Shown: piece after piece, positions 1-36,907 of the stretch
Position numbering within the stretch: the stretch's first letter is position 1
How the letters are laid out: each line of letters starts with the position of its first letter
Origin: a virus
Virus record (IMG/VR): IMGVR_UViG_3300032897_000001
Coordinates: 36,795-100,794 of that record
Reading direction: 5' to 3' (one strand)
DNA length: 64,000 nucleotides
Made by a program: the position numbers and the translations under genes
Notes under the pieces: model-generated
The model's input: only the letters and a program-made list of their open reading frames with translations
Database searches by the model: none
Told to the model about the DNA's origin: nothing

Positions 1-1
1 T

Positions 2-73
2 CTCGCAGAACGTGCTCAGCGGGCTGTTGTGGTTGACACTGAGCAGGCGCCCGACCAGTTGGAACTGTTCTAA
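2..73 (+). CDS. 3' end of a gene truncated by the window edge (...LAERAQRAVVVDTEQAPDQLELF*)
   Basis: Open frame from base 2 to TAA at 71-73, immediately followed by hammerhead 1. Confidence 0.5.
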   Translation, partial: LAERAQRAVVVDTEQAPDQLELF

Positions 74-75
74 AA

Positions 76-130
76 GGCCGAAACACGGGATATCCCGTGT
101 CGCACCGTAAGGCGGTGCCTGATGATGGCC
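76..130 (+). ncRNA. Type II hammerhead ribozyme 1, predicted cleavage after C101
   Basis: GGCC-GAAAC-[ACGGGA-TA-TCCCGT]-GTC-[GCACCG-TAAGG-CGGTGC]-CTGATGA-T-GGCC: complete core (CUGAUGA, GAAA, GUC) with stems I, II and III. Confidence 0.92.
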
Positions 131-149
131 AGAAAGAGGAGACAAACAA

Positions 150-371
150 ATGCGTGTATATTTTAACCCCGATGTGGTCGCGGCATATGGCGATATGGCC
201 GATACCCCTGAATTCAAAGTCGGTTTTATGGATTTCTATTTAGGAGTTCTCAACAATTCTGTGCCGGATCTTTTGCGGGATGAAAAATCCGCAATCGCTT
301 GGCGTTCTGGGTGGCATGCCGCACAAGCGTGCGCCGAAAGTTTTTTGAAAAATATTCAAAAAGACTGTTGA
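150..371 (+). CDS. Hypothetical early protein
   Basis: 73 aa ORF with GAGGAG RBS, directly after hammerhead 1. Confidence 0.7.
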   Translation: MRVYFNPDVVAAYGDMADTPEFKVGFMDFYLGVLNNSVPDLLRDEKSAIAWRSGWHAAQACAESFLKNIQKDC

Positions 372-395
372 CGTTTCCTGGGGAATGCTTATTAT
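340..395 (+). promoter_or_regulatory. Sigma70-type early promoter 1 with A/T-tract upstream element
   Basis: TTTTTTGAAAAATATTCAAAAA, TTGACG (368-373), 16 bp, TATTAT (390-395); homologous to the promoters at 873 and 3383. Confidence 0.75.
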
Positions 396-452
396 CAATC
401 TTGTCAGACGGGCCGGACAGACCGAGCCAGACCAGAAAGAGGGGAGACGGTT

Positions 453-809
453 ATGGGTTCCTATGAAATCATCCGCCACGAAATCAAGAATGTGAAGGCA
501 GCGAAAGCGGCGTTCGCCCGGCTGGAAGCCGCATACAAAATGGTTGATGCGGAATACGTCAACGATGAGTCTTGGCAGGAGTTCCACGGCGTTGAGTACA
601 AATTCGGCGGTTTGGCGTGGTGGAAGGCCCGTGTGCTGGCAATGACCATCAGGATTGAGTGGCAGGCTAGTACCCGCGTGTTCATCTCTCCCCCTTCCGA
701 GGAAAGCCGCAACAAGGACTCTTTTGAAGGTGGTCACCACGAAGTATACACCGATCGCAAGGCATTGGCTGCAGCGCAAATCAAGGTGGCCGCGTTGCTC
801 CGCGGCTAA
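453..809 (+). CDS. Hypothetical early protein
   Basis: 118 aa ORF with GAGGGGAG RBS. Confidence 0.8.
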   Translation: MGSYEIIRHEIKNVKAAKAAFARLEAAYKMVDAEYVNDESWQEFHGVEYKFGGLAWWKARVLAMTIRIEWQASTRVFISPPSEESRNKDSFEGGHHEVYTDRKALAAAQIKVAALLRG

Positions 810-815
810 CCCCAC

Positions 816-851
816 GGCGCCCATGGACTTTGTGGGCGCCAAAAGTTTTTT
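816..851 (+). terminator. Probable intrinsic terminator
   Basis: GGCGCCCAT/GTGGGCGCC hairpin followed by AAAAGTTTTTT, after the stop at 809. Confidence 0.55.
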
Positions 852-901
852 GAAGTTTTTTCAAAAAACTTATTGACCTTTCCTGGGGAATGCCCTAGAG
901 T
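845..901 (+). promoter_or_regulatory. Sigma70-type early promoter 2
   Basis: T6GAA..TTCA6 inverted A/T tract, TTGACC (873-878), 17 bp, TAGAGT (896-901). Confidence 0.8.
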
Positions 902-907
902 AGCTTT

Positions 908-1009
908 GTTGGTTGGAACGAAAGGCGGTGACACGGGCAGGTCCAATGGTAATCGGCAGAACTAGACTCCCTAACGTATGAACGGGAAAGAGTCTGTGAG
1001 AGGCGAAAA
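908..1009 (+). ncRNA. Structured leader RNA, copy A (family unknown)
   Basis: Near-identical to 3418-3519; stem AGACTC(964-969)/GAGTCT(990-995) is replaced by CAGTCC/GGACTG in copy B. Confidence 0.65.
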
Positions 1010-1065
1010 GGTCGAAACGGCAGAGACTCTGCCGTCGTGTCGTAAGGCGGCACCTGATGATGACC
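1010..1065 (+). ncRNA. Type II hammerhead ribozyme 2, predicted cleavage after C1036
   Basis: GGTC-GAAAC-[GGCAGAG-A-CTCTGCC]-GTC-[GTGTCG-TAAGG-CGGCAC]-CTGATGA-T-GACC; stem II covaries (GGTC/GACC). Confidence 0.92.
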
Positions 1066-1081
1066 AAAGGGAGTACCGATC

Positions 1082-1378
1082 ATGAAAAACGAAGCATTTG
1101 AAGCCGCTCTTGCAGCATTCTTGGTTGCCGCACAAGCTTTGTGCGATGCCAGCGGCTCTTACAGCTATACCAAACTGTCTATGCAATACGGGCGCCGTTA
1201 TGTCCGTATCGTCGCAGAACGCTCCGGACAACAGTCCGTATGGGGATTTGTGGACACCACAAACGGGAATGTGCTTAAGGCAGCCAGCTGGAAAGCACCC
1301 GCTACCAAATATGCACGCGGCTGCATTTATGACGAAAATCGGGGTTGTGGCCGGGCAAGGTGGATGGGTGTTGCTTAA
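1082..1378 (+). CDS. Conserved phage hypothetical protein flanked by hammerheads 2 and 3
   Basis: 98 aa, GGGAG RBS; the GFVD..G.VLKAASWKAPA motif recurs in phage proteins. Confidence 0.8.
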   Translation: MKNEAFEAALAAFLVAAQALCDASGSYSYTKLSMQYGRRYVRIVAERSGQQSVWGFVDTTNGNVLKAASWKAPATKYARGCIYDENRGCGRARWMGVA

Positions 1379-1382
1379 AGCA

Positions 1383-1438
1383 GGCCGAAACGGCGGAGAT
1401 TCCGCCGTCGCACCGTAAGGCGGTGCCTGATGATGGCC
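1383..1438 (+). ncRNA. Type II hammerhead ribozyme 3, predicted cleavage after C1409
   Basis: GGCC-GAAAC-[GGCGGA-GAT-TCCGCC]-GTC-[GCACCG-TAAGG-CGGTGC]-CTGATGA-T-GGCC. Confidence 0.92.
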
Positions 1439-1453
1439 AAAAGGAGAAAGACA

Positions 1454-1642
1454 ATGGCAGAATTTATCGTGTCAAAATACAAAATCGGCGACATCGTAAC
1501 TTTGAAAAGCGGCGAGGTGTTGCGCATTACCGCGATCCGCGATCGCGCCCACTACACCAAGGCCGCATATAGTGCGGTGGAAGTCCGTAAGGGTAAGCGT
1601 CCTGGTAAAGAACGTCTCTTCATTGAGGCGGACGCGTCATGA
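1454..1642 (+). CDS. Small hypothetical protein (MAEFIVSKYKIGDIVTLKSG..., SH3/KOW-like)
   Basis: AAGGAG RBS after hammerhead 3; ATG at 1454 chosen over 1430, which lies inside the ribozyme. Confidence 0.75.
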   Translation: MAEFIVSKYKIGDIVTLKSGEVLRITAIRDRAHYTKAAYSAVEVRKGKRPGKERLFIEADAS

Positions 1643-1679
1643 CGCGGCATAACGAAATTCAAAACGCTGGGGAACAAAA

Positions 1680-3311
1680 ATGACACAGACCAAAAGCCAG
1701 ATTGTTGCGGCGGATGTCGCCGCTTTGTTGCGGGCGCGGAACCCGCTGATTTGGATCGTTACCCGGGAAGAATCTCGGGTTGAAACCAACATTGTGCAGG
1801 CCGCGGCTGCAGCGGGATATGGTGCCTGCACATGGGATGTCGCACAAGGCGCACGCACTATCGACGGGGCACGGGTGCCGGGTAGTGATGGCACTGAGGA
1901 TGTCAGCGCCATGTTCGCGATGATAAAGGCACAATCCGAAAATGTGCAGCGTGCACAACGGTGCGTGTGGATCATGCGAGACTTGGCGCCATGGCTGCAA
2001 GGGCCAATCGGCATGGTCACGTTGCGACAGCTTCGGAACCTTGCCCGGGCACTGCCCGGGACCGGGCGGAGCACGTCACAGGCAATCGTCGTGTTGACGA
2101 CTTCCCCAAATGTCCCGGACGAATTGGAGGGACACGCGGTAGTGATCGAATGGCCCTTGCCCGATCGCGAGGAAATTGCGGCAATCCTTGACGCTGCAAT
2201 CACGGCACTGCCCGAAAACGATGAGAAAGGCGTGCCCGTTCGCGGTCCCGCAACACCAATCAATGGGGTTCGCGAGGCAGCAATTGATGCGGCGGTGGGG
2301 CTTTCCGGAGAGGAAGCCGCGGCGTGTTTTGCAAAATCCTTGGTACAGATCCGGAAGATCGACCCGCCGCTGATTACCAAGGAAAAGCGCCGCGTCATCT
2401 CCAAGGCAGGTGTTTTGGAGTGGTTCGAACCGCTTTCTGGCGGGTTGGGCGCTGTGGGTGGTCTCGACAATCTAAAAGATTGGCTGATTGCCCGGCGCGC
2501 CGCTTATTCGCCACGTGCGCGGGCTTATGGTCTGCCAGCGCCAAAAGGTGCACTCCTTGTTGGTGTCCCCGGGTGTGGTAAGTCGCTCACAGCAAAGGCT
2601 GTTGCAACAGCCTGGGGCGTGCCCTTACTTCGGATGGACCTGGGCGCATTGAAGAGTAAATATGTGGGCGAATCCGAAGGGAACCTTCGGAAAGCGTTCC
2701 AGATCATTGAAGCCATGGGGCGGTGCGTCGTGTGGCTGGATGAAATTGAAAAAGCCTTGGCAGGCGCAACGCAAGGCGCTGCAGATGGTGGCGTGTCATC
2801 GGATGCTTTGGGCGCCATTCTAGGGTGGATGCAAGATCGTAGCGGACAGGCGTTTGTCGTAGCTACTGCAAACGACATCTCTGCGCTGCCTCCGGAATTG
2901 CTCCGTAAGGGGCGATTTGATGAAGTGTGGTTCGTTGATTTGCCGAACCCTGATGAACGGGCAAGCATCCTGTCCGCCGCATTACGGGCACACGGTCGGG
3001 ACACCAAAACGCTTGTGTCCAAAGAACAGGATTCCGCTGCTGTAGTTGCAGCAACGGAAGGCTTTTCCGGAGCCGAAATTGCGGCACTGGTTCCGGACGC
3101 CATGTATACGGCATTCGGAGATGGGGAACGGGAAATTACCGTGGATGATCTGTGGTTTGCTGCAAGGCAGACTGTGCCGTCAACCCGGACATCAGCAGAG
3201 AAGATTGAGAAATTACGGGAATGGTCCCGCAGTGGTCGCGCAAGGCTTGCCACACGGACAGTTTCCAAGGCGGAGACTACACAAGGAACCGGGCGCAAAC
3301 TCGACATCTGA
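1680..3311 (+). CDS. AAA+ ATPase, Ycf46-like
   Basis: Walker A GVPGCGKS, Walker B VVWLDEIEK, LPPELLRKGRFDE; N-terminal LLRARNPLIWIVTREE typical of the Ycf46 family. Confidence 0.88.
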   Translation: MTQTKSQIVAADVAALLRARNPLIWIVTREESRVETNIVQAAAAAGYGACTWDVAQGARTIDGARVPGSDGTEDVSAMFAMIKAQSENVQRAQRCVWIMRDLAPWLQGPIGMVTLRQLRNLARALPGTGRSTSQAIVVLTTSPNVPDELEGHAVVIEWPLPDREEIAAILDAAITALPENDEKGVPVRGPATPINGVREAAIDAAVGLSGEEAAACFAKSLVQIRKIDPPLITKEKRRVISKAGVLEWFEPLSGGLGAVGGLDNLKDWLIARRAAYSPRARAYGLPAPKGALLVGVPGCGKSLTAKAVATAWGVPLLRMDLGALKSKYVGESEGNLRKAFQIIEAMGRCVVWLDEIEKALAGATQGAADGGVSSDALGAILGWMQDRSGQAFVVATANDISALPPELLRKGRFDEVWFVDLPNPDERASILSAALRAHGRDTKTLVSKEQDSAAVVAATEGFSGAEIAALVPDAMYTAFGDGEREITVDDLWFAARQTVPSTRTSAEKIEKLREWSRSGRARLATRTVSKAETTQGTGRKLDI

Positions 3312-3317
3312 TGCTGG

Positions 3318-3361
3318 TTAGCGAAGCTGTGGCGGGTGCTGACAGCTTCGCTAAGTTTTTT
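3318..3361 (+). terminator. Intrinsic terminator
   Basis: 13-bp stem TTAGCGAAGCTGT/ACAGCTTCGCTAA followed by GTTTTTT. Confidence 0.7.
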
Positions 3362-3411
3362 GAAAAATATTCAAAAAACTTGTTGACGTTTCCCGAGGGA
3401 ACCCTTAGGAT
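3355..3411 (+). promoter_or_regulatory. Sigma70-type early promoter 3
   Basis: TTTTTTGAAAAATATTCAAAAAA, TTGACG (3383-3388), 17 bp, TAGGAT (3406-3411). Confidence 0.82.
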
Positions 3412-3417
3412 AGCTTT

Positions 3418-3519
3418 ATTAGTTGGAACGAAAGGCGGTGACACGGGCAGGCCCAATGGTAATCGGCAGAACTCAGTCCCCTAACGTAGGAACGGGAAAG
3501 GACTGGTGAGAGGCGAAAA
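3418..3519 (+). ncRNA. Structured leader RNA, copy B
   Basis: Direct repeat of 908-1009 (offset 2510) with compensatory stem changes. Confidence 0.65.
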
Positions 3520-3574
3520 GGTCGAAACGGCGGGTTCCCGCCGTCGTGTCGTGAGGCGGCACCTGATGATGACC
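3520..3574 (+). ncRNA. Type II hammerhead ribozyme 4, predicted cleavage after C3545
   Basis: GGTC-GAAAC-[GGCGGG-TT-CCCGCC]-GTC-[GTGTCG-TGAGG-CGGCAC]-CTGATGA-T-GACC. Confidence 0.92.
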
Positions 3575-3591
3575 AAAGAGGAGCAAACACA

Positions 3592-3762
3592 ATGAATACC
3601 AAAATGAAGAAGTTCAGTGCCGTTGCCTTCAAGGGCGAAGATCGGTTCATGTTTTCGTTCGATTGGCCCAACTGGTATCGTATCGAAGAAGAGGCGCGGC
3701 GCGTGCTGGATGAGAAGGGTTTCCCGGATTGGGAGTTCCGTAGCATCGATATTCGCGCATAA
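3592..3762 (+). CDS. 56 aa hypothetical protein (MNTKMKKFSAVAFKGEDRFMFSFDWPNWYRIEEEARRVLDEKGFPDWEFRSIDIRA), absent from the ORF track
   Basis: GAGGAG RBS, ATG 3592, TAA 3760-3762; fills the space between hammerheads 4 and 5 exactly. Confidence 0.8.
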   Translation: MNTKMKKFSAVAFKGEDRFMFSFDWPNWYRIEEEARRVLDEKGFPDWEFRSIDIRA

Positions 3763-3763
3763 A

Positions 3764-3819
3764 GGCCGAAACGGCGGATATTCCGCCGTCGTGCCGTGAG
3801 GCGGCACCTGATGATGGCC
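3764..3819 (+). ncRNA. Type II hammerhead ribozyme 5, predicted cleavage after C3790
   Basis: GGCC-GAAAC-[GGCGGA-TAT-TCCGCC]-GTC-[GTGCCG-TGAGG-CGGCAC]-CTGATGA-T-GGCC. Confidence 0.92.
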
Positions 3820-3836
3820 GAAAGGAAAGAAAACAC

Positions 3837-4694
3837 ATGGCGATCCAAGCTTCAACGCTACGTCCGGGACTTTTGGTTTCCCTGCGGACCAGCATCCAGG
3901 GCAATGTCAAATATGACAAAATTGACCTGGAAGAAGACCACGTAACAGAAGACGGACAAAGGAAGGCACGTTGGGAGACGGTGCGAACCATTGAAGATCC
4001 GGAAGAACATGAACGCGCCCACAAGGCGCGGGACCGGGTAAAGCTGTTGGTCCGCAGTGCGTGCGTGTTCTCGGAATTCGGACTGCTTTGCCCGGATGGA
4101 AAGACAGGCGTCCTTGATGAACAAATCAAGGAAGCCCGGCGCGTGGCAGACGAGTTCAACGCCACATCCACTATAAGCAAGGTGCGGGTCTATGTGCTTG
4201 TTGGGCGTATCGCGCCCGATGATGCTGAGGCAGTGAAGGCGATTTCCAGTGAAATTCGGGAATTGCTCTCCACAATGGAGACTGGGATTTCAAACCTTGA
4301 TGTGAAGTCCGTGCGTGCGGCTGCAGATCGTGCCAAAAATCTTGGTACAATGCTTTCCCCGGACGCTCAGGAACGCGTTCTAGAAGCTGTGGAAGCGGCG
4401 CGGGCAGTTGCCCGTAAAATTGTGAAGGCTGGGGAACAGGCCGCACAGGAGATAGACAGGACAACGATTGCGCGGATTGCCGCCGCACGAACGATGTTCC
4501 TGGATATCGACACTGTGCCGACCGAAATCGGCACAGCAGAATCGGTTGGGCGTGCTGTTGATCTGGCTCCCGAGGTTCCCGAGGAAGTGCCGACACAGGA
4601 TCAAGTGAAACACGAATCCTCTGTGCTGGATTTGGAACCCGTTGCGGATATCGGTGCAACGGTTGCGCCGCAAACCCGTAACGTCGAATTTTGA
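3837..4694 (+). CDS. Hypothetical helical protein (possibly DUF3150-like)
   Basis: 285 aa, AGGA RBS after hammerhead 5. Confidence 0.75.
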   Translation: MAIQASTLRPGLLVSLRTSIQGNVKYDKIDLEEDHVTEDGQRKARWETVRTIEDPEEHERAHKARDRVKLLVRSACVFSEFGLLCPDGKTGVLDEQIKEARRVADEFNATSTISKVRVYVLVGRIAPDDAEAVKAISSEIRELLSTMETGISNLDVKSVRAAADRAKNLGTMLSPDAQERVLEAVEAARAVARKIVKAGEQAAQEIDRTTIARIAAARTMFLDIDTVPTEIGTAESVGRAVDLAPEVPEEVPTQDQVKHESSVLDLEPVADIGATVAPQTRNVEF

Positions 4695-11477: not shown

Positions 11478-12034
11478 GACGCTTGTGTTGCGCCATCGCG
11501 TTTAGCGCGGCTGTCTATAGTCCCGCTTATGCGGACTGGCTCCAAAACCTCATGACAACCCCGGCGCCTGCGTTGAAGCAGGCGCCACACAATGAGTGCC
11601 AGTCAGAAAGCAGCATCCGTGCCGCGGGATCTTACCCCATGTACACAAGGCGCCTTCCGGGCTATGTGGGGCGGCGTTGTTGGTATGCTGCACACAATGA
11701 AAAGCCAACCGTGCATTCGAAACGAAACACGCGGCAAGTGGTGGATCATCCTCGAATAGAAACCACAGGCACGGCTTCACGTGTTCCGGATTCGAGTCCT
11801 CAAGACACCGATCGTGAATTTTTGGCCGGACGCAGACAGCTTATCGCGGACTTCCCCGACATGGCCTTTGACCTCGCGATCGAACCCCCCGCGCGAACAA
11901 CTCCGGCACAAGGTAGGGCGCTGGCTGACTTGTTGTTTGACGAAATGCTGCAAGTCAACCGAAGTTGGTTTCTCATAACGGTGGAAACCGTGTTGATGAC
12001 CACACACAGTCAACACCGACAACCATTCTGGTAA
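11474..12034 (+). CDS. Exported hypothetical protein
   Basis: Sec-type signal peptide MRRLCCAIAFSAAVYSPAYA; ATGA coupling. Confidence 0.65.
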   Translation: MRRLCCAIAFSAAVYSPAYADWLQNLMTTPAPALKQAPHNECQSESSIRAAGSYPMYTRRLPGYVGRRCWYAAHNEKPTVHSKRNTRQVVDHPRIETTGTASRVPDSSPQDTDREFLAGRRQLIADFPDMAFDLAIEPPARTTPAQGRALADLLFDEMLQVNRSWFLITVETVLMTTHSQHRQPFW

Positions 12035-32703: not shown

Positions 32704-34677
32704 TTAAAGCACATCAATAGAATTGAGCGTGATCTGCTGAACCGCCTGTCCGTCCATATACCAAAACGTGCATAGCGGCGACCCGCGCGCCTGTCTCACT
32801 GCCACACCAGGATCTGTAACTTGCAAATACCAACCACGCTGATTTAGCGTATTGGAGATATTCAATCCGGCAGCAGCATTGACTTCCGCTATTTCAAGCG
32901 TACTCAGGGTAACACCCGTGCGGAACGCACCGAAATTCAAACCGGCTGCGATGACACCGGCCGCAGCCGCTTCAATCAGCGCATATCCATTCGGATTGTA
33001 CGGTACAGAGTACACCTGAACAAGCAACTCCATAAGAGCCAACTGGAATTGCGCATTCAGCCAAATCTGATTGATATAGCTATCCAACCACTTGAACGGA
33101 CCCGACACCGATCCGGGATAGAAAAACACGAATTGCTGTGCCGCAGTGGCATAAGCACCGTAGAAGTTATATCCGTTAGCGATCAGGTTCTGTGCCACAG
33201 TCGCGTTTGTTACACTTGCTGTCAATCCAGACTGCGATCGGAAAGCAAAGGTAATACGGCCATTAAGCTGGTTAAAGTTTATGGACGCTGCAGCGCCGGA
33301 TATGAAACACTCTAAAAGTTGGTCGGTTGGCTGCCATATAAGACACGTTCCCGTGTAATTGCCTTGCTGTAGGGCATAGCCATAGCTGCCCGTTGCGGGA
33401 ACGGTTAGAGTCGGACTCGGGTCCGTGTCCCACGTAATGAACGCATATTGCTGATTCTGCGGCGCTTGTGCCACCCATTGCGAAAACAGTAACTTCTGTG
33501 CTCCCCCTGGAACGCCGAAATCCGGATCAAATGCCGTCATGAACGTTGCCCAGTTTTGGGTAATCGCCGTGACAGAAGACATGAACGCGCCCGGAGTCGT
33601 CGCATCTGCTCCTTGAGACAATACGGCGCCTGTTGCCGCTGTCCAAAGCAACAATGCTGCGGCTGGTCCTGTTGCATATGCAACAGTCGATTCTATCCCG
33701 ATAACGCCGGAAGTTATTACAAATCCGCCAGACACAGAGTCATAGGTTACAGAGACAGACTGCGCTTGCATGGTAAGCGCAACAGTGGTGCCTATGGTCT
33801 GAGAATTAGTGACATAGTATGTGCCAACCGTACCTGTGCCCGTTCCAAGCTGTTTGATAACCGTATTAGCCAGTGGACTTGATCCTGTAACGGTTCCCGT
33901 TACAGCCTGCCCTACAGAGATTGTTCCAGTGAGCACCGACGATACAGTTAGTAGTCCATAAGTTGAGGATAAAGTCCCGCTAACTACTGCCTGCGCTATG
34001 GACACGGCATAAGTGCCAACGCCACCTGCTGATCCTGTGGTGACAGTAAGTTGCTCTCCAATCAGCGTGCCTGCTGCAACACCGCCAAGAGTGCCCATTG
34101 CACTGCCATCTATGATCGTTCCACCGATTACTTGTGTAACCGTAAGCACATTACCCTGGATCGATCCGACAAATGATGCTGTTTGTGGTCCAATACTGCC
34201 TGTTACAGTTGCGAGAGTCACAGCATTGTTGTTAAGCGTTGTTTGAATCAGCGTCGCTGCTGCTGAAAAACTTGTTGCAGATGACAAGTTTATCGTGCCC
34301 GTTCGCGCGGAACCATCAACAACAACACTTAATGCACCATTTATTCCCTGCAGAGCAGGTAACGTCAGTGTCGAAATATTCCCGCCACGCATATAAGCAG
34401 ACACGTGATATGCCGGCATTTGAGCAAACAACAAAGCCTGCGGCACACCGGATGCGCCAGTGAATCCGGTAAAATACACATTGCTCATCAGTGTTTCGTG
34501 TGCAGATGCACCAAAATATGTACTGACATTGGCGGCAGTGGCAAAAGACGCCACTGTACCAATCGGCACACGTGTATTTTGCGTAATAATCAGGCCAATT
34601 ACATTAAGTTGATTGCCCGTCGCCCCCAAAACCCCGGGGATGACGTTCACTATTTGAGATGCCGGGATTGTAGTCAT
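32704..34677 (-). CDS. Tail sheath protein, DUF3383 family, with inserted repeat domain
   Basis: IPASQIVNV.PGV, TQNWATF, W.DSYINQIWLN, PYN..GY.LI, R.SP...FWY.DG. Confidence 0.88.
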   Translation of the reverse strand: MTTIPASQIVNVIPGVLGATGNQLNVIGLIITQNTRVPIGTVASFATAANVSTYFGASAHETLMSNVYFTGFTGASGVPQALLFAQMPAYHVSAYMRGGNISTLTLPALQGINGALSVVVDGSARTGTINLSSATSFSAAATLIQTTLNNNAVTLATVTGSIGPQTASFVGSIQGNVLTVTQVIGGTIIDGSAMGTLGGVAAGTLIGEQLTVTTGSAGGVGTYAVSIAQAVVSGTLSSTYGLLTVSSVLTGTISVGQAVTGTVTGSSPLANTVIKQLGTGTGTVGTYYVTNSQTIGTTVALTMQAQSVSVTYDSVSGGFVITSGVIGIESTVAYATGPAAALLLWTAATGAVLSQGADATTPGAFMSSVTAITQNWATFMTAFDPDFGVPGGAQKLLFSQWVAQAPQNQQYAFITWDTDPSPTLTVPATGSYGYALQQGNYTGTCLIWQPTDQLLECFISGAAASINFNQLNGRITFAFRSQSGLTASVTNATVAQNLIANGYNFYGAYATAAQQFVFFYPGSVSGPFKWLDSYINQIWLNAQFQLALMELLVQVYSVPYNPNGYALIEAAAAGVIAAGLNFGAFRTGVTLSTLEIAEVNAAAGLNISNTLNQRGWYLQVTDPGVAVRQARGSPLCTFWYMDGQAVQQITLNSIDVL

Positions 34678-34717: not shown

Positions 34718-35512
34718 TCATGGAGGATACGTTGCTTGCACACTCAGCGGACTGATTTTCAAAGTTCCCGCAAACATCTGCGGTGCGACAACAACTTGAT
34801 TCACTTGTACATGTGCATCAATCGTCCATCGTAGTTCGTATTGCATTTCGCCAAACACCTGCGACATCTGGCGAGGATCATCCGCGTAAAGCGGCTTTAC
34901 ACCGTCATAGGGCAAAGCCAGTGTTCCGCCGATAGGGATGGGCGCCCATCCTTGTGGTGTGGCGCCGTACCCAGAGAAAAACTGAAAAGAGTAGTTATCA
35001 CGAAACAGCGTCGAAATAATCTGCGCATTTTCAGCGCTGTTTGGTCCATATACGTCTATCTGGATAGTTTCCTCAGTCGGCTGCAAAGCCAAAAACACAC
35101 CACAAGCAAACGTCTGTGACGGTATGACACCAAGTGCACCACTGATGGAATATGTACCTGTTCCGCCGGTTCCGCTGATAGTTCCTGTTATATATGTCAC
35201 GGTTCCTGTTGCGAGACCCGTTCCAAACAATTGATTGCCTGCATTGATAGTGCCGTGAAGGATGTTGCTGACATTAAGTGTCGTTCCAGAAATACTACCG
35301 GAAAAAGCACAATCAGCGTAAAGATTTACGTTAGTTTCCAGACGCTTCATCATAATTGGCGTCATTACAACATAGTCTGGTCCTAGCGGACCGGAAACAC
35401 GGTTTTGTTGCCCACGAATAACTTCAACACTTACAGGCAGGACATTTATCAAAAAATTCCTGACTGCCGATAAAACGTCAATCTGTGTTGGCGACGTCGT
35501 GGGGAGCGTCAC
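34718..35512 (-). CDS. Neck / tail terminator protein
   Basis: GQQNRV, IQIDVYG, TLFRD, PLYADDP.Q. Confidence 0.75.
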   Translation of the reverse strand: MTLPTTSPTQIDVLSAVRNFLINVLPVSVEVIRGQQNRVSGPLGPDYVVMTPIMMKRLETNVNLYADCAFSGSISGTTLNVSNILHGTINAGNQLFGTGLATGTVTYITGTISGTGGTGTYSISGALGVIPSQTFACGVFLALQPTEETIQIDVYGPNSAENAQIISTLFRDNYSFQFFSGYGATPQGWAPIPIGGTLALPYDGVKPLYADDPRQMSQVFGEMQYELRWTIDAHVQVNQVVVAPQMFAGTLKISPLSVQATYPP

Positions 35513-36471: not shown

Positions 36472-36907
36472 CTTGGTGTGCGATGCTGTTCACCATGACA
36501 GCCGTATCAATCAAAGGTTTATCAAAACCCTTTTTCTCTATCGTAACGGGAGAAAGTGCGGGTTCCACCAGATCGTTTATCGATTGCCTGAGTTGCCCTG
36601 CAATGGCGTCACCAGCTTGTCCTAGAGTCTGCTTGGCATTGTAATTGTTTGCTAAAAGAAGCCGCGCAATCGCCCCAGGCCACTCATTTTCATGCTTGGC
36701 AATCATACGGCGGAAGAACGGTCGTGGTGGCTGTTTGCGTGACGGCACGCCAAATTCATTCATCGCTGCAACCAACGGCACGGATGTTCCGTCCGGATAC
36801 GTCGCGTTTTCCATAAACCCGACTTTCAGCAACTTTCCATTTCTGATATTCTTGGTTATGTCGGCAAGTCTGACAACGATCTTGCTACCACCTTTAAGCC
36901 GTGCCAT
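36464..36907 (-). CDS. Neck / tail completion protein
   Basis: VGF.E.ATYPDG..V..VA..NEFG...PPRPF.R...KGFDKPLIDT. Confidence 0.8.
   Translation of the reverse strand: MARLKGGSKIVVRLADITKNIRNGKLLKVGFMENATYPDGTSVPLVAAMNEFGVPSRKQPPRPFFRRMIAKHENEWPGAIARLLLANNYNAKQTLGQAGDAIAGQLRQSINDLVEPALSPVTIEKKGFDKPLIDTAVMVNSIAHQVD

Follow-up and report, generated by a model that had tools for sequence, protein, structure and literature searches.

A structured RNA family at the 5' end of phage early transcripts, followed by predicted hammerhead ribozymes in a wetland phage

What is the nature, and what could be the role, of an RNA segment that an uncultured wetland phage places in nearly identical copies between its early promoters and type II hammerhead ribozymes? 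This question is raised by the 3'-most 64 kb of IMG/VR record IMGVR_UViG_3300032897_000001 (100,794 nt; positions 36,795 to 100,794, the 64,000-nt stretch analysed here and hereafter the window), in which two such segments, at 908-1036 and 3418-3545, had originally been predicted to be a duplicated leader RNA released as a discrete small RNA (sRNA) by the hammerhead. We have shown that the leader is a real, previously uncatalogued structured RNA family located at the 5' end of early transcripts made by the host polymerase; the selection acting on its hairpin fold and its cis location as a 5' leader are both firm. On its role we are more tentative: the reading that we favour, while giving it somewhat less than an even chance of being right, is that of a cis-acting, ribosome-engaging element which would set the loading of ribosomes on the first early message, or the protection of that message.

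The near-identity of the two segments noticed in the original prediction is borne out, with 115 of 131 aligned columns in agreement (88%) and 91% identity over the leader core. The largest block of difference is a 6-bp stem, at 964-969/990-995 in the first window copy (copy 3) and at 3474-3479/3500-3505 in the second (copy 4), which has changed at five of six positions on each strand and is still fully paired (AGACTC/GAGTCT versus CAGTCC/GGACTG); in a gapped alignment the same change can alternatively be written as mirrored indels plus one substitution per strand. The module enclosed by this stem is kept (CCTAACGTATGAACGGGAAA at 970-989, CCTAACGTAGGAACGGGAAA at 3480-3499), its loop being the sole difference. 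The other differences are confined to one tetraloop base, one spacer base, two bases at the 5' end, and the loop and top of hammerhead stem III. The absence of a conserved open reading frame (ORF) is confirmed as well, since the ATG at 946 opens 11 codons and that at 3456 opens 17, and the two peptides differ. What had to be revised is the number of loci: the genome harbors four leader copies rather than two, and no more than four, the additional ones (copies 1 and 2) being found just upstream of the window at genome positions 33453-33562 and 34812-34921. The window copies begin 7 nt 3' of their promoter and extend to the GUC triplet of the hammerhead (C1036 and C3545).

To collect homologs, the 20-nt module was searched in IMG/VR and in soil metagenome contigs, as the exact pattern CCTAACGTNNGAACGGGAAA and then with relaxed patterns, and matches without a flanking stem were discarded. 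Some 13 additional lineages, represented by phage contigs from soil and wetland, carry the module together with the upstream sequence (L005; L006-L009; L010; L012; L013/L014; L017/L020/L069; L018; L021; L019; L022; L025/L026 with L015; L029/L030; L031/L032). With a covariance model (R1) trained on 21 sequences aligned by MAFFT (alignment A2), full members score 59-94 bits and chance module-only matches about 22 bits; copy 3 (908-1011, + strand, the start near 908 being deduced from the -10 box) reaches 94 bits (E 2.6e-20) and copy 4 (3418-3521, + strand) 93.4 bits (E 3.6e-20). Four other carrier records, of approximately 32-46 kb and with a CheckV completeness of 72-100%, each contain one full leader copy. 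In a fifth, L010, the R1 match is limited to the module; the leader that surrounds it there is about 330 nt long and has additional helices.

The covariation that the original prediction expected among homologs is clear. In a test on 20 distinct sequences from about 13 lineages, the stem (P1) is paired in 96.7% of the cells, double changes amount to 41 cells, and the sequence of P1 differs in every lineage (e.g. CUCUAAGCC/GGUUUAGAG, GAUCGC/GCGAUC and CUGGGC/GCCCAG). Four P1 pairs display three to five standard pair types each with zero unpaired cells. The covariation score is 0.476 for P1 against 0.100 in shuffles, none of the 500 shuffles reaching the observed value, and in control structures slid by 1-3 columns 15-47% of the cells pair. 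The G-U pairs of P1 would be A-C mismatches on the opposite strand; they fit the + strand only, and the RNA is thus read from that strand. RNAalifold, applied to the 21 sequences, independently finds the same hairpin and no other helix, and single-sequence folds agree on this hairpin. Since no conserved helix was found 5' of P1 by RNAalifold on these 21 sequences, the 5' half of the leader is conserved as single-stranded sequence and not as a fold. The signal of selection consists of covariation and sequence conservation, not of folding energy.

Alignments and a scripted annotation give the same order of parts throughout the family: a Shine-Dalgarno (SD)-like purine tract, a variable spacer, an AUG, an unpaired stretch, P1, the module and a second purine tract. 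The 5' purine tract lies a few bases 3' of the predicted transcription start, usually after ACG, and reads AAGGAGGUGAU in L005, GGAGGUG in L029 and AAGGCGGUGA in this phage; in copy 3 it is ACGAAAGGCGGTGA (918-931, + strand), which matches AAGGAGGTGA at 9 of 10 positions. A match of at least 4 nt to the extended SD sequence is present at the aligned place in every lineage, and extends to 11 nt in L005. The AUG is found 21-26 nt 5' of the module in 10 of 14 lineages, and in 9 of these 10 the SD-AUG spacing is 7-15 nt. The frames that it opens have 2-23 codons and encode unrelated peptides, with the form AUG-NNN-NNN-(G/A)GC-stop in four lineages. In copy 3 the mini-ORF (946-981, + strand, 11 codons, ATG to TGA) starts 24 nt 5' of the module and stops within the hairpin loop; in copy 4 the SD-like tract is at 3428-3441, and the 17-codon frame runs from the ATG at 3456 to 3509, across P1 (3474-3479/3500-3505) and the module (3480-3499). 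The original prediction had thus rightly recognized a structured + strand RNA with compensatory changes and a peptide that is not conserved, but had overlooked the SD-like tract and the AUG at a fixed distance.

The hairpin itself (964-995 in copy 3, + strand) follows an unpaired stretch of about 17-20 nt, often containing AAUCGGCWGAAC. P1 comprises 4-10 bp, begins at +17 to +21 from the AUG and encloses the module, which in copy 3 is CC-TAA-CGT-ATGA-ACG-GG-AAA (970-989) and in general consists, after a C-G closing pair, of CC, UAA, CGU, NNGR, ACG, GG and AAA (20 nt). CC/GG and AAA are identical in all members found, the constancy of AAA resting on search patterns in which AAA was fixed. UAA is replaced once by CAA (L069) and CGU by CGA in L029/L030, which turns the U-A pair into A·A. 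Degenerate patterns that tolerated changes in the inner stem, in the CC/GG pairs or in the bulge retrieved only CAA, CGA and loop variants, the rest being devoid of P1, and a scan leaving CC/GG free yielded no real member with other pairs. The element is closed by the second purine tract (GNGGAGAGGAGA-like; GTGAGAGGCGAAAAGG at 996-1011, + strand, in copy 3). In L012, L019 and L031/L032 the aligned tract serves as the ribosome-binding site (RBS) of the first gene; in these lineages it is 1-10 nt past P1, and the start codon is 26-28 nt 3' of the module. The RBS is inside the hairpin only in L029, within the module and the 3' strand of P1, and the start codon of L029/L030 is 9 nt 3' of the module; altogether, the first gene starts 9-44 nt 3' of the module in five lineages.

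An invariant internal-loop core of 20 nt within a covarying P1, directly 5' of an RBS and in L029 overlapping it, is also what a riboswitch-like sensor might look like, the hairpin and module binding a small molecule or ion and thereby governing access to the RBS or, in this phage, the folding of the hammerhead. We consider this improbable. The downstream genes are diverse early phage genes that are unrelated to one another, the module with its stem is absent from the bacterial genomes searched, and RNAalifold reveals neither a conserved alternative pairing nor an expression platform beside the putative aptamer. Pairing between leader and hammerhead is at the chance level: the minimum free energy (MFE) folds, in which UGGUAAUCGGCAG pairs with CUGAUGAUGACCA (-11 kcal/mol) and would mask the hammerhead core, are no better than those of shuffled leaders (p 0.14-0.49), and such masking was rejected. 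The 5' purine tract can pair with the module, P1 or the downstream RBS as well, but this is seen in single copies only (L025; copy 3), is not conserved and was likewise rejected.

The leader family is new to Rfam and to the literature that we searched, in keeping with the failure of the original prediction to assign it to a known family. Rfam 15 has no match to it, either at gathering thresholds over the whole window or at E<=10 on positions 1-4000 and 895-1080; at the leader loci the scan found the hammerhead only. The Rfam scan of 14 related loci gave nothing useful. No blastn match to the leader was obtained in GenBank phages (50,697 records), and among 185,579 bacterial and archaeal genomes (one per species) the exact module occurs once, without a flanking stem, which we take as chance. 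A literature search on the module sequence returned chance primer matches only. In kind, nevertheless, the leader is a promoter-proximal phage leader RNA, and as such belongs to an already known class.

These searches also bear on the idea that the module is a processing signal or a new self-cleaving ribozyme, directing a cut, autonomous or made by a host RNase, that would let the mRNA start at the second purine tract. The association with hammerheads in two lineages could be seen in this light, since the neighborhood of known ribozymes has yielded new ribozyme classes before, and a ribozyme would have an invariant core. The structure is, however, very small, its activity would be redundant with a hammerhead located 20-45 nt downstream, and a 186-nt query has no Rfam ribozyme match at E<=10; we regard this possibility as very improbable. 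Both it and the riboswitch are less likely than the two alternatives discussed below, in which the leader acts on the host polymerase or in trans. The 11-nt GAAA tetraloop receptor (CCUAAG/UAUGG), the pistol ribozyme, ops, rrn boxA and segments of 16S rRNA were considered as possible counterparts and dropped, because the partners that define them are absent or the resemblance does not extend beyond a single lineage.

The genomic setting is that of early transcription. A sigma-70-like promoter is located immediately 5' of the leader in every lineage with upstream sequence available, and a co-oriented ORF follows within 220 nt in all lineages. In this phage, the early region (genome 33.4-40.2 kb) contains seven promoters of a single family (window 331-395, 836-901 and 3346-3411; genome 33420, 34152, 34779 and 36523, the last four being upstream of the window), with a -35 region TTGAC(G/C)TTTCC preceded by an A/T palindrome, AAGTTTTTTGAA(N6)TTCAAAAAAC. 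In most of the seven, this palindrome also supplies the U-tract of an intrinsic terminator hairpin; it might function as an UP element, as a site for a regulator or as a terminator working in both directions. The promoter of copy 3 (873-901, + strand) has a -35 box TTGACC (873-878), a 17-nt spacer and a -10 box TAGAGT (896-901), and lies just 3' of a palindrome and terminator at 816-852; that of copy 4 (3383-3411, + strand) consists of TTGACG, a 17-nt spacer and TAGGAT, with the terminator of the preceding unit just upstream. Four times in this phage the order is sigma-70-type promoter, leader of about 100 nt, type II hammerhead, RBS and gene, so that leader and hammerhead stand behind four of the seven promoters and the leader is absent behind three. 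The leaderless promoters have a different short 5' untranslated region (UTR) in common (window 396-452, genome 34181-34225), beginning with CUUGUCAGACGGGCCGGAC; leader copies 1 and 2 begin with CUUGUCAGAC, the same start as these 5' UTRs. Because of this shared start, leader and hammerhead together resemble a cassette that has been placed behind the transcription start and ahead of the RBS. The AAA ATPase encoded between the two window copies (543 amino acids, window 1680-3311) has relatives at 15 IMG/VR loci (57-66% identity), and neither the leader nor the hammerhead is found at any of these 15. Since such close relatives carry neither, both RNA elements appear to be recent acquisitions in the lineage of this phage.

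After copy 3 the first gene encodes 98 amino acids (1082-1378, + strand; DUF7717/phrog_5014) and after copy 4 a 56-residue protein with no family match (3592-3762, + strand); in L005 an operon comprising DUF932, a ligase-like gene and DNA polymerase begins with the leader, and across carriers the downstream genes are diverse and unrelated early phage genes. The carriers themselves are equally disparate. Between this phage and the three other fully fetched carriers there are almost no proteins in common, with four weak BLAST hits in total, a comparison that very small proteins (including N-like ones) could escape. Because so little is shared, a common phage-encoded partner of the leader seems unlikely, and the partner is probably a host component.

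The features of the leader that resemble a translation start, namely the SD-like tract, the AUG and a hairpin beyond the ribosome footprint, are the reason why we favour the ribosome as this host component. The 5' tract would pair with the 3' end of 16S rRNA and bring the AUG into the P site. An initiating ribosome covers the mRNA to about +15; the invariant hairpin, which starts at +17 to +21, would then be just outside the mRNA entry channel and might retain the ribosome or fix its position. The short frame, itself not conserved, stops 5' of the hairpin or within it, and P1 would carry this stop close to the second purine tract, which in relatives of the simplest type is the genuine RBS. The outcome could be a control of ribosome loading on the first early gene, a protection of the 5' end, or both. 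That the leader acts in cis as a 5' leader, rather than being a dedicated sRNA gene, is suggested by the observation that most relatives are ribozyme-free and that a co-oriented gene always comes next.

Two groups of known elements are reminiscent of such an arrangement. Polypurine 5' stabilizers, such as STAB-SD of Bacillus thuringiensis cryIIIA and the early RNA stabilizer of phage SP82, also place an SD-like purine tract near the transcript 5' end, in SP82 on a phage early RNA, and L005 contains GAAAGGAGG, which we take to be the STAB-SD sequence. These stabilizers require neither a start codon nor a conserved hairpin, whereas in the leader the tract is followed at set distances by an AUG and an invariant hairpin, and the predicted cleavage would detach the tract from the mRNA of this phage. 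The translational attenuators of ermC and cat-86 have the same order of parts as the leader (SD1, short leader ORF, hairpin, SD2 and gene). In these attenuators, however, the hairpin sequesters SD2 and the peptide sequence matters, while in the leader SD2 is outside the hairpin in most lineages, the peptides of 2-23 residues are unrelated and it is the core that is invariant; an RBS-sequestering hairpin with a conserved peptide does not describe the family.

Several observations weigh against a ribosome-engaging leader. The AUG at a fixed distance is missing in L013/L014, L017/L020/L069, L018 and L021, and L021 has AUA where L018 has an upstream AUG; in several lineages the SD-to-AUG spacing is 12-15 nt, which is above the optimum. 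Taken as a whole, the leader folds no more stably than shuffled sequences do (z -0.4 to +0.4). The ribosome model leaves the invariance of the 20 nt of the hairpin unexplained. A hammerhead (in two lineages) or a 16-bp hairpin (in L007) is interposed between leader and gene, and a pure cis effect on translation or stability would be lost after cleavage; despite the predicted separation from the message, the four copies of this phage have been kept nearly identical. A leader cut off its message fits better with an element acting on the polymerase or in trans.

The first of these alternatives is a processive antiterminator similar to put, in which the nascent leader would bind the very host RNA polymerase that has made it and render it resistant to pauses and terminators without any phage protein. 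Like putL and putR of HK022, the leader is a promoter-proximal early phage RNA, situated directly 3' of early promoters, present in several copies with compensatory stem changes and without a dedicated phage protein. The absence of a phage protein common to carriers and the invariant module are as expected for a conserved host target, and in this phage every early unit closes with an intrinsic terminator immediately 5' of the next promoter. Even the hammerhead is compatible with this mechanism, as put activity is independent of a tether through the nascent transcript (PMC9378689). The structure, in contrast, does not match. put is about 70 nt long with two long stem-loops (PMC9378689), and in HK022 these form, with a triple helix, the structure bound to the beta' zinc-binding domain, whereas in the leader only P1 and the inner 3-bp hairpin are conserved, forming one short hairpin with an invariant internal loop behind an unpaired SD-like tract and AUG. 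No sequence similarity between leader and put was seen. Such an antiterminator would not explain the SD-like tract, the fixed-distance AUG or the RBS right behind the hairpin; the leader is missing at three of the seven promoters of the same family, and read-through is hardly needed when each unit has its own promoter. We therefore think it unlikely that the leader works in this way. The lambda nut site is similar to the leader in combining a conserved single-stranded segment and a small hairpin 3' of early promoters, but consists of boxA, a 5-bp stem with a GNRA-like pentaloop, and a requirement for the N protein; on reading the sequences, the leader has no boxA consensus and a 4-nt NNGR loop on a 3-bp stem, and no N-like protein was identified.

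The second alternative hinges on the ribozymes. Eight hammerheads are found in a 7-kb stretch of this genome, four behind leaders and four further ones between genes. All eight have the CUGAUGA and GAAA cores and covarying stems, with a GUH triplet; as in type II hammerheads, stems I and III are closed and stem II is open. The RF02276 model aligns over its positions 1-66 at 22.7-32.3 bits (E 7e-4 to 0.25), below the gathering score of 37 bits. The hammerhead behind copy 3 (1010-1069, + strand; 24.5 bits, E 0.0039) contains GAAA, GUC and CUGAUGA and has its predicted cleavage site after C1036; that behind copy 4 (3520-3578, + strand; 22.7 bits, E 0.25) has the same core motifs and would be cleaved after C3545. 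Both begin within the second purine tract. With a type II topology, stem III stays with the leader and stem I heads the mRNA. Cleavage would thus leave an RNA of about 128 nt with a 3' hairpin; in our working model the hammerhead has been added 3' of the second purine tract, and the released leader would carry a 5' triphosphate, the stem III hairpin and a 2',3'-cyclic phosphate, while the mRNA would begin with a 5'-OH hairpin and its own RBS. In L013/L014 the same place is occupied by a minimal type III hammerhead with a canonical three-way junction fold and a stem II of 2-3 bp, apparently added independently (L013:2460-2505, + strand; L014:1070-1117, - strand). It was recognized by its motifs and fold, and is not listed by Rfam at E<=0.05. 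In L007 (2290-2345, - strand) a perfect 16-bp hairpin without a U-tract (z -5.1) lies between leader and first gene and is a candidate RNase III site or unusual terminator. In the remaining lineages the leader is followed directly by the gene or by other sequence of 60-220 nt, so that a ribozyme is absent behind the leader in 12 of about 14 lineages. Since different hammerheads, or none, follow the leader across lineages, leader and ribozyme are separable modules which have been combined at least twice.

Clustered type II hammerheads between phage genes have been described (Perreault et al. 2011, PMC3088659), and those behind the leader belong to this known kind; the leader itself mostly occurs without hammerheads. 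Arrays of vrRNA interspersed with hammerheads have been presented for the VIPR systems (bioRxiv 10.64898/2026.04.26.720920).

The ribozymes are the main support for a leader acting in trans, the role advanced in the original prediction: cut off by the hammerhead, or elsewhere by host RNases, it would serve as an sRNA or decoy, binding and titrating some conserved factor of the host, for instance an RNA-binding protein, a sensor involved in defence or the 30S subunit. That two lineages have independently gained hammerheads, differing in topology, at one and the same position behind the leader speaks in favor of this view, as do the 16-bp hairpin (z -5.1) at that place in L007, the protective 3' hairpin that type II cleavage would leave, the high dose to be expected from four predicted strong promoters, and the invariant module in the absence of a shared phage protein. 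Yet the leader never stands alone: a co-oriented ORF is always next and in five lineages is only 9-44 nt away without an intervening processing element. Furthermore, the other carriers have a single copy, and no target can be named. We judge this role unlikely too. Hence, of the discrete sRNA originally proposed, the hammerhead core behind the leader stands and the dedicated sRNA gene is not favored; the decoy and the put- or nut-like roles are possible, but our tests gave them no specific support and the leader does not fit the structural definition of either put or nut.

A more far-reaching proposal can be made, although we find it somewhat doubtful. The hairpin and its flanking single strands might be a new kind of RNA docking on a conserved host machine, the mRNA entry site of the 30S subunit or RNA polymerase, and unrelated phages would have put it at the head of their first transcripts in order to seize that machine. 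With its four promoters and four ribozymes, this phage would then turn out large amounts of the free RNA of about 128 nt early in infection.

Conserved RNAs at the start of phage early transcripts have been instructive before, nut and put having revealed that an RNA can reprogram the host polymerase. The leader is a further such element, common to phages without proteins in common, whose fold is clearly supported and whose 20-nt core is unusually rigid, and its signals suggest the ribosome more than the polymerase. At about 95 nt, with a hairpin of 32 nt, it is small enough for direct biochemistry and structural work. The recruitment of hammerheads of two topologies behind it is also a natural example of ribozymes separating a 5' leader from its message, which is the principle of the synthetic insulator RiboJ. 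Should its partner indeed prove to be the ribosome or polymerase, the module might be developed into a portable part for gene expression.

A few additional observations concern sequences related to these elements or located near them. Module-like sequences (CCCTAACGTAGGAACGGAGGG) in L076, L077 and L078 (near 2838, 2022 and 4294, respectively) end three tandem repeats containing CAAAACGTAC; the R1 match is weak (22.6 bits), and this is probably a different element. On the minus strand of the related contigs L085 and L106, TG-TAA-CGT-G(C/G)GA-ACG-CG-AAA-G is found immediately before GGAG and an ATG, without P1, and may represent a distant minimal relative of the module. In the related contigs L029, L030, L031, L032 and L010, a shared perfect palindrome, GTGTGTGACTCACAC, overlaps or just precedes the leader promoter, approximately 60-330 nt 5' of the module, and is probably a repressor operator. 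Finally, a ninth, loose match to the hammerhead pattern (CGAAAC...GTC...CTGATGA), with different stems, is located at genome positions 11847-11889, about 25 kb upstream of the window and far from the early cluster.

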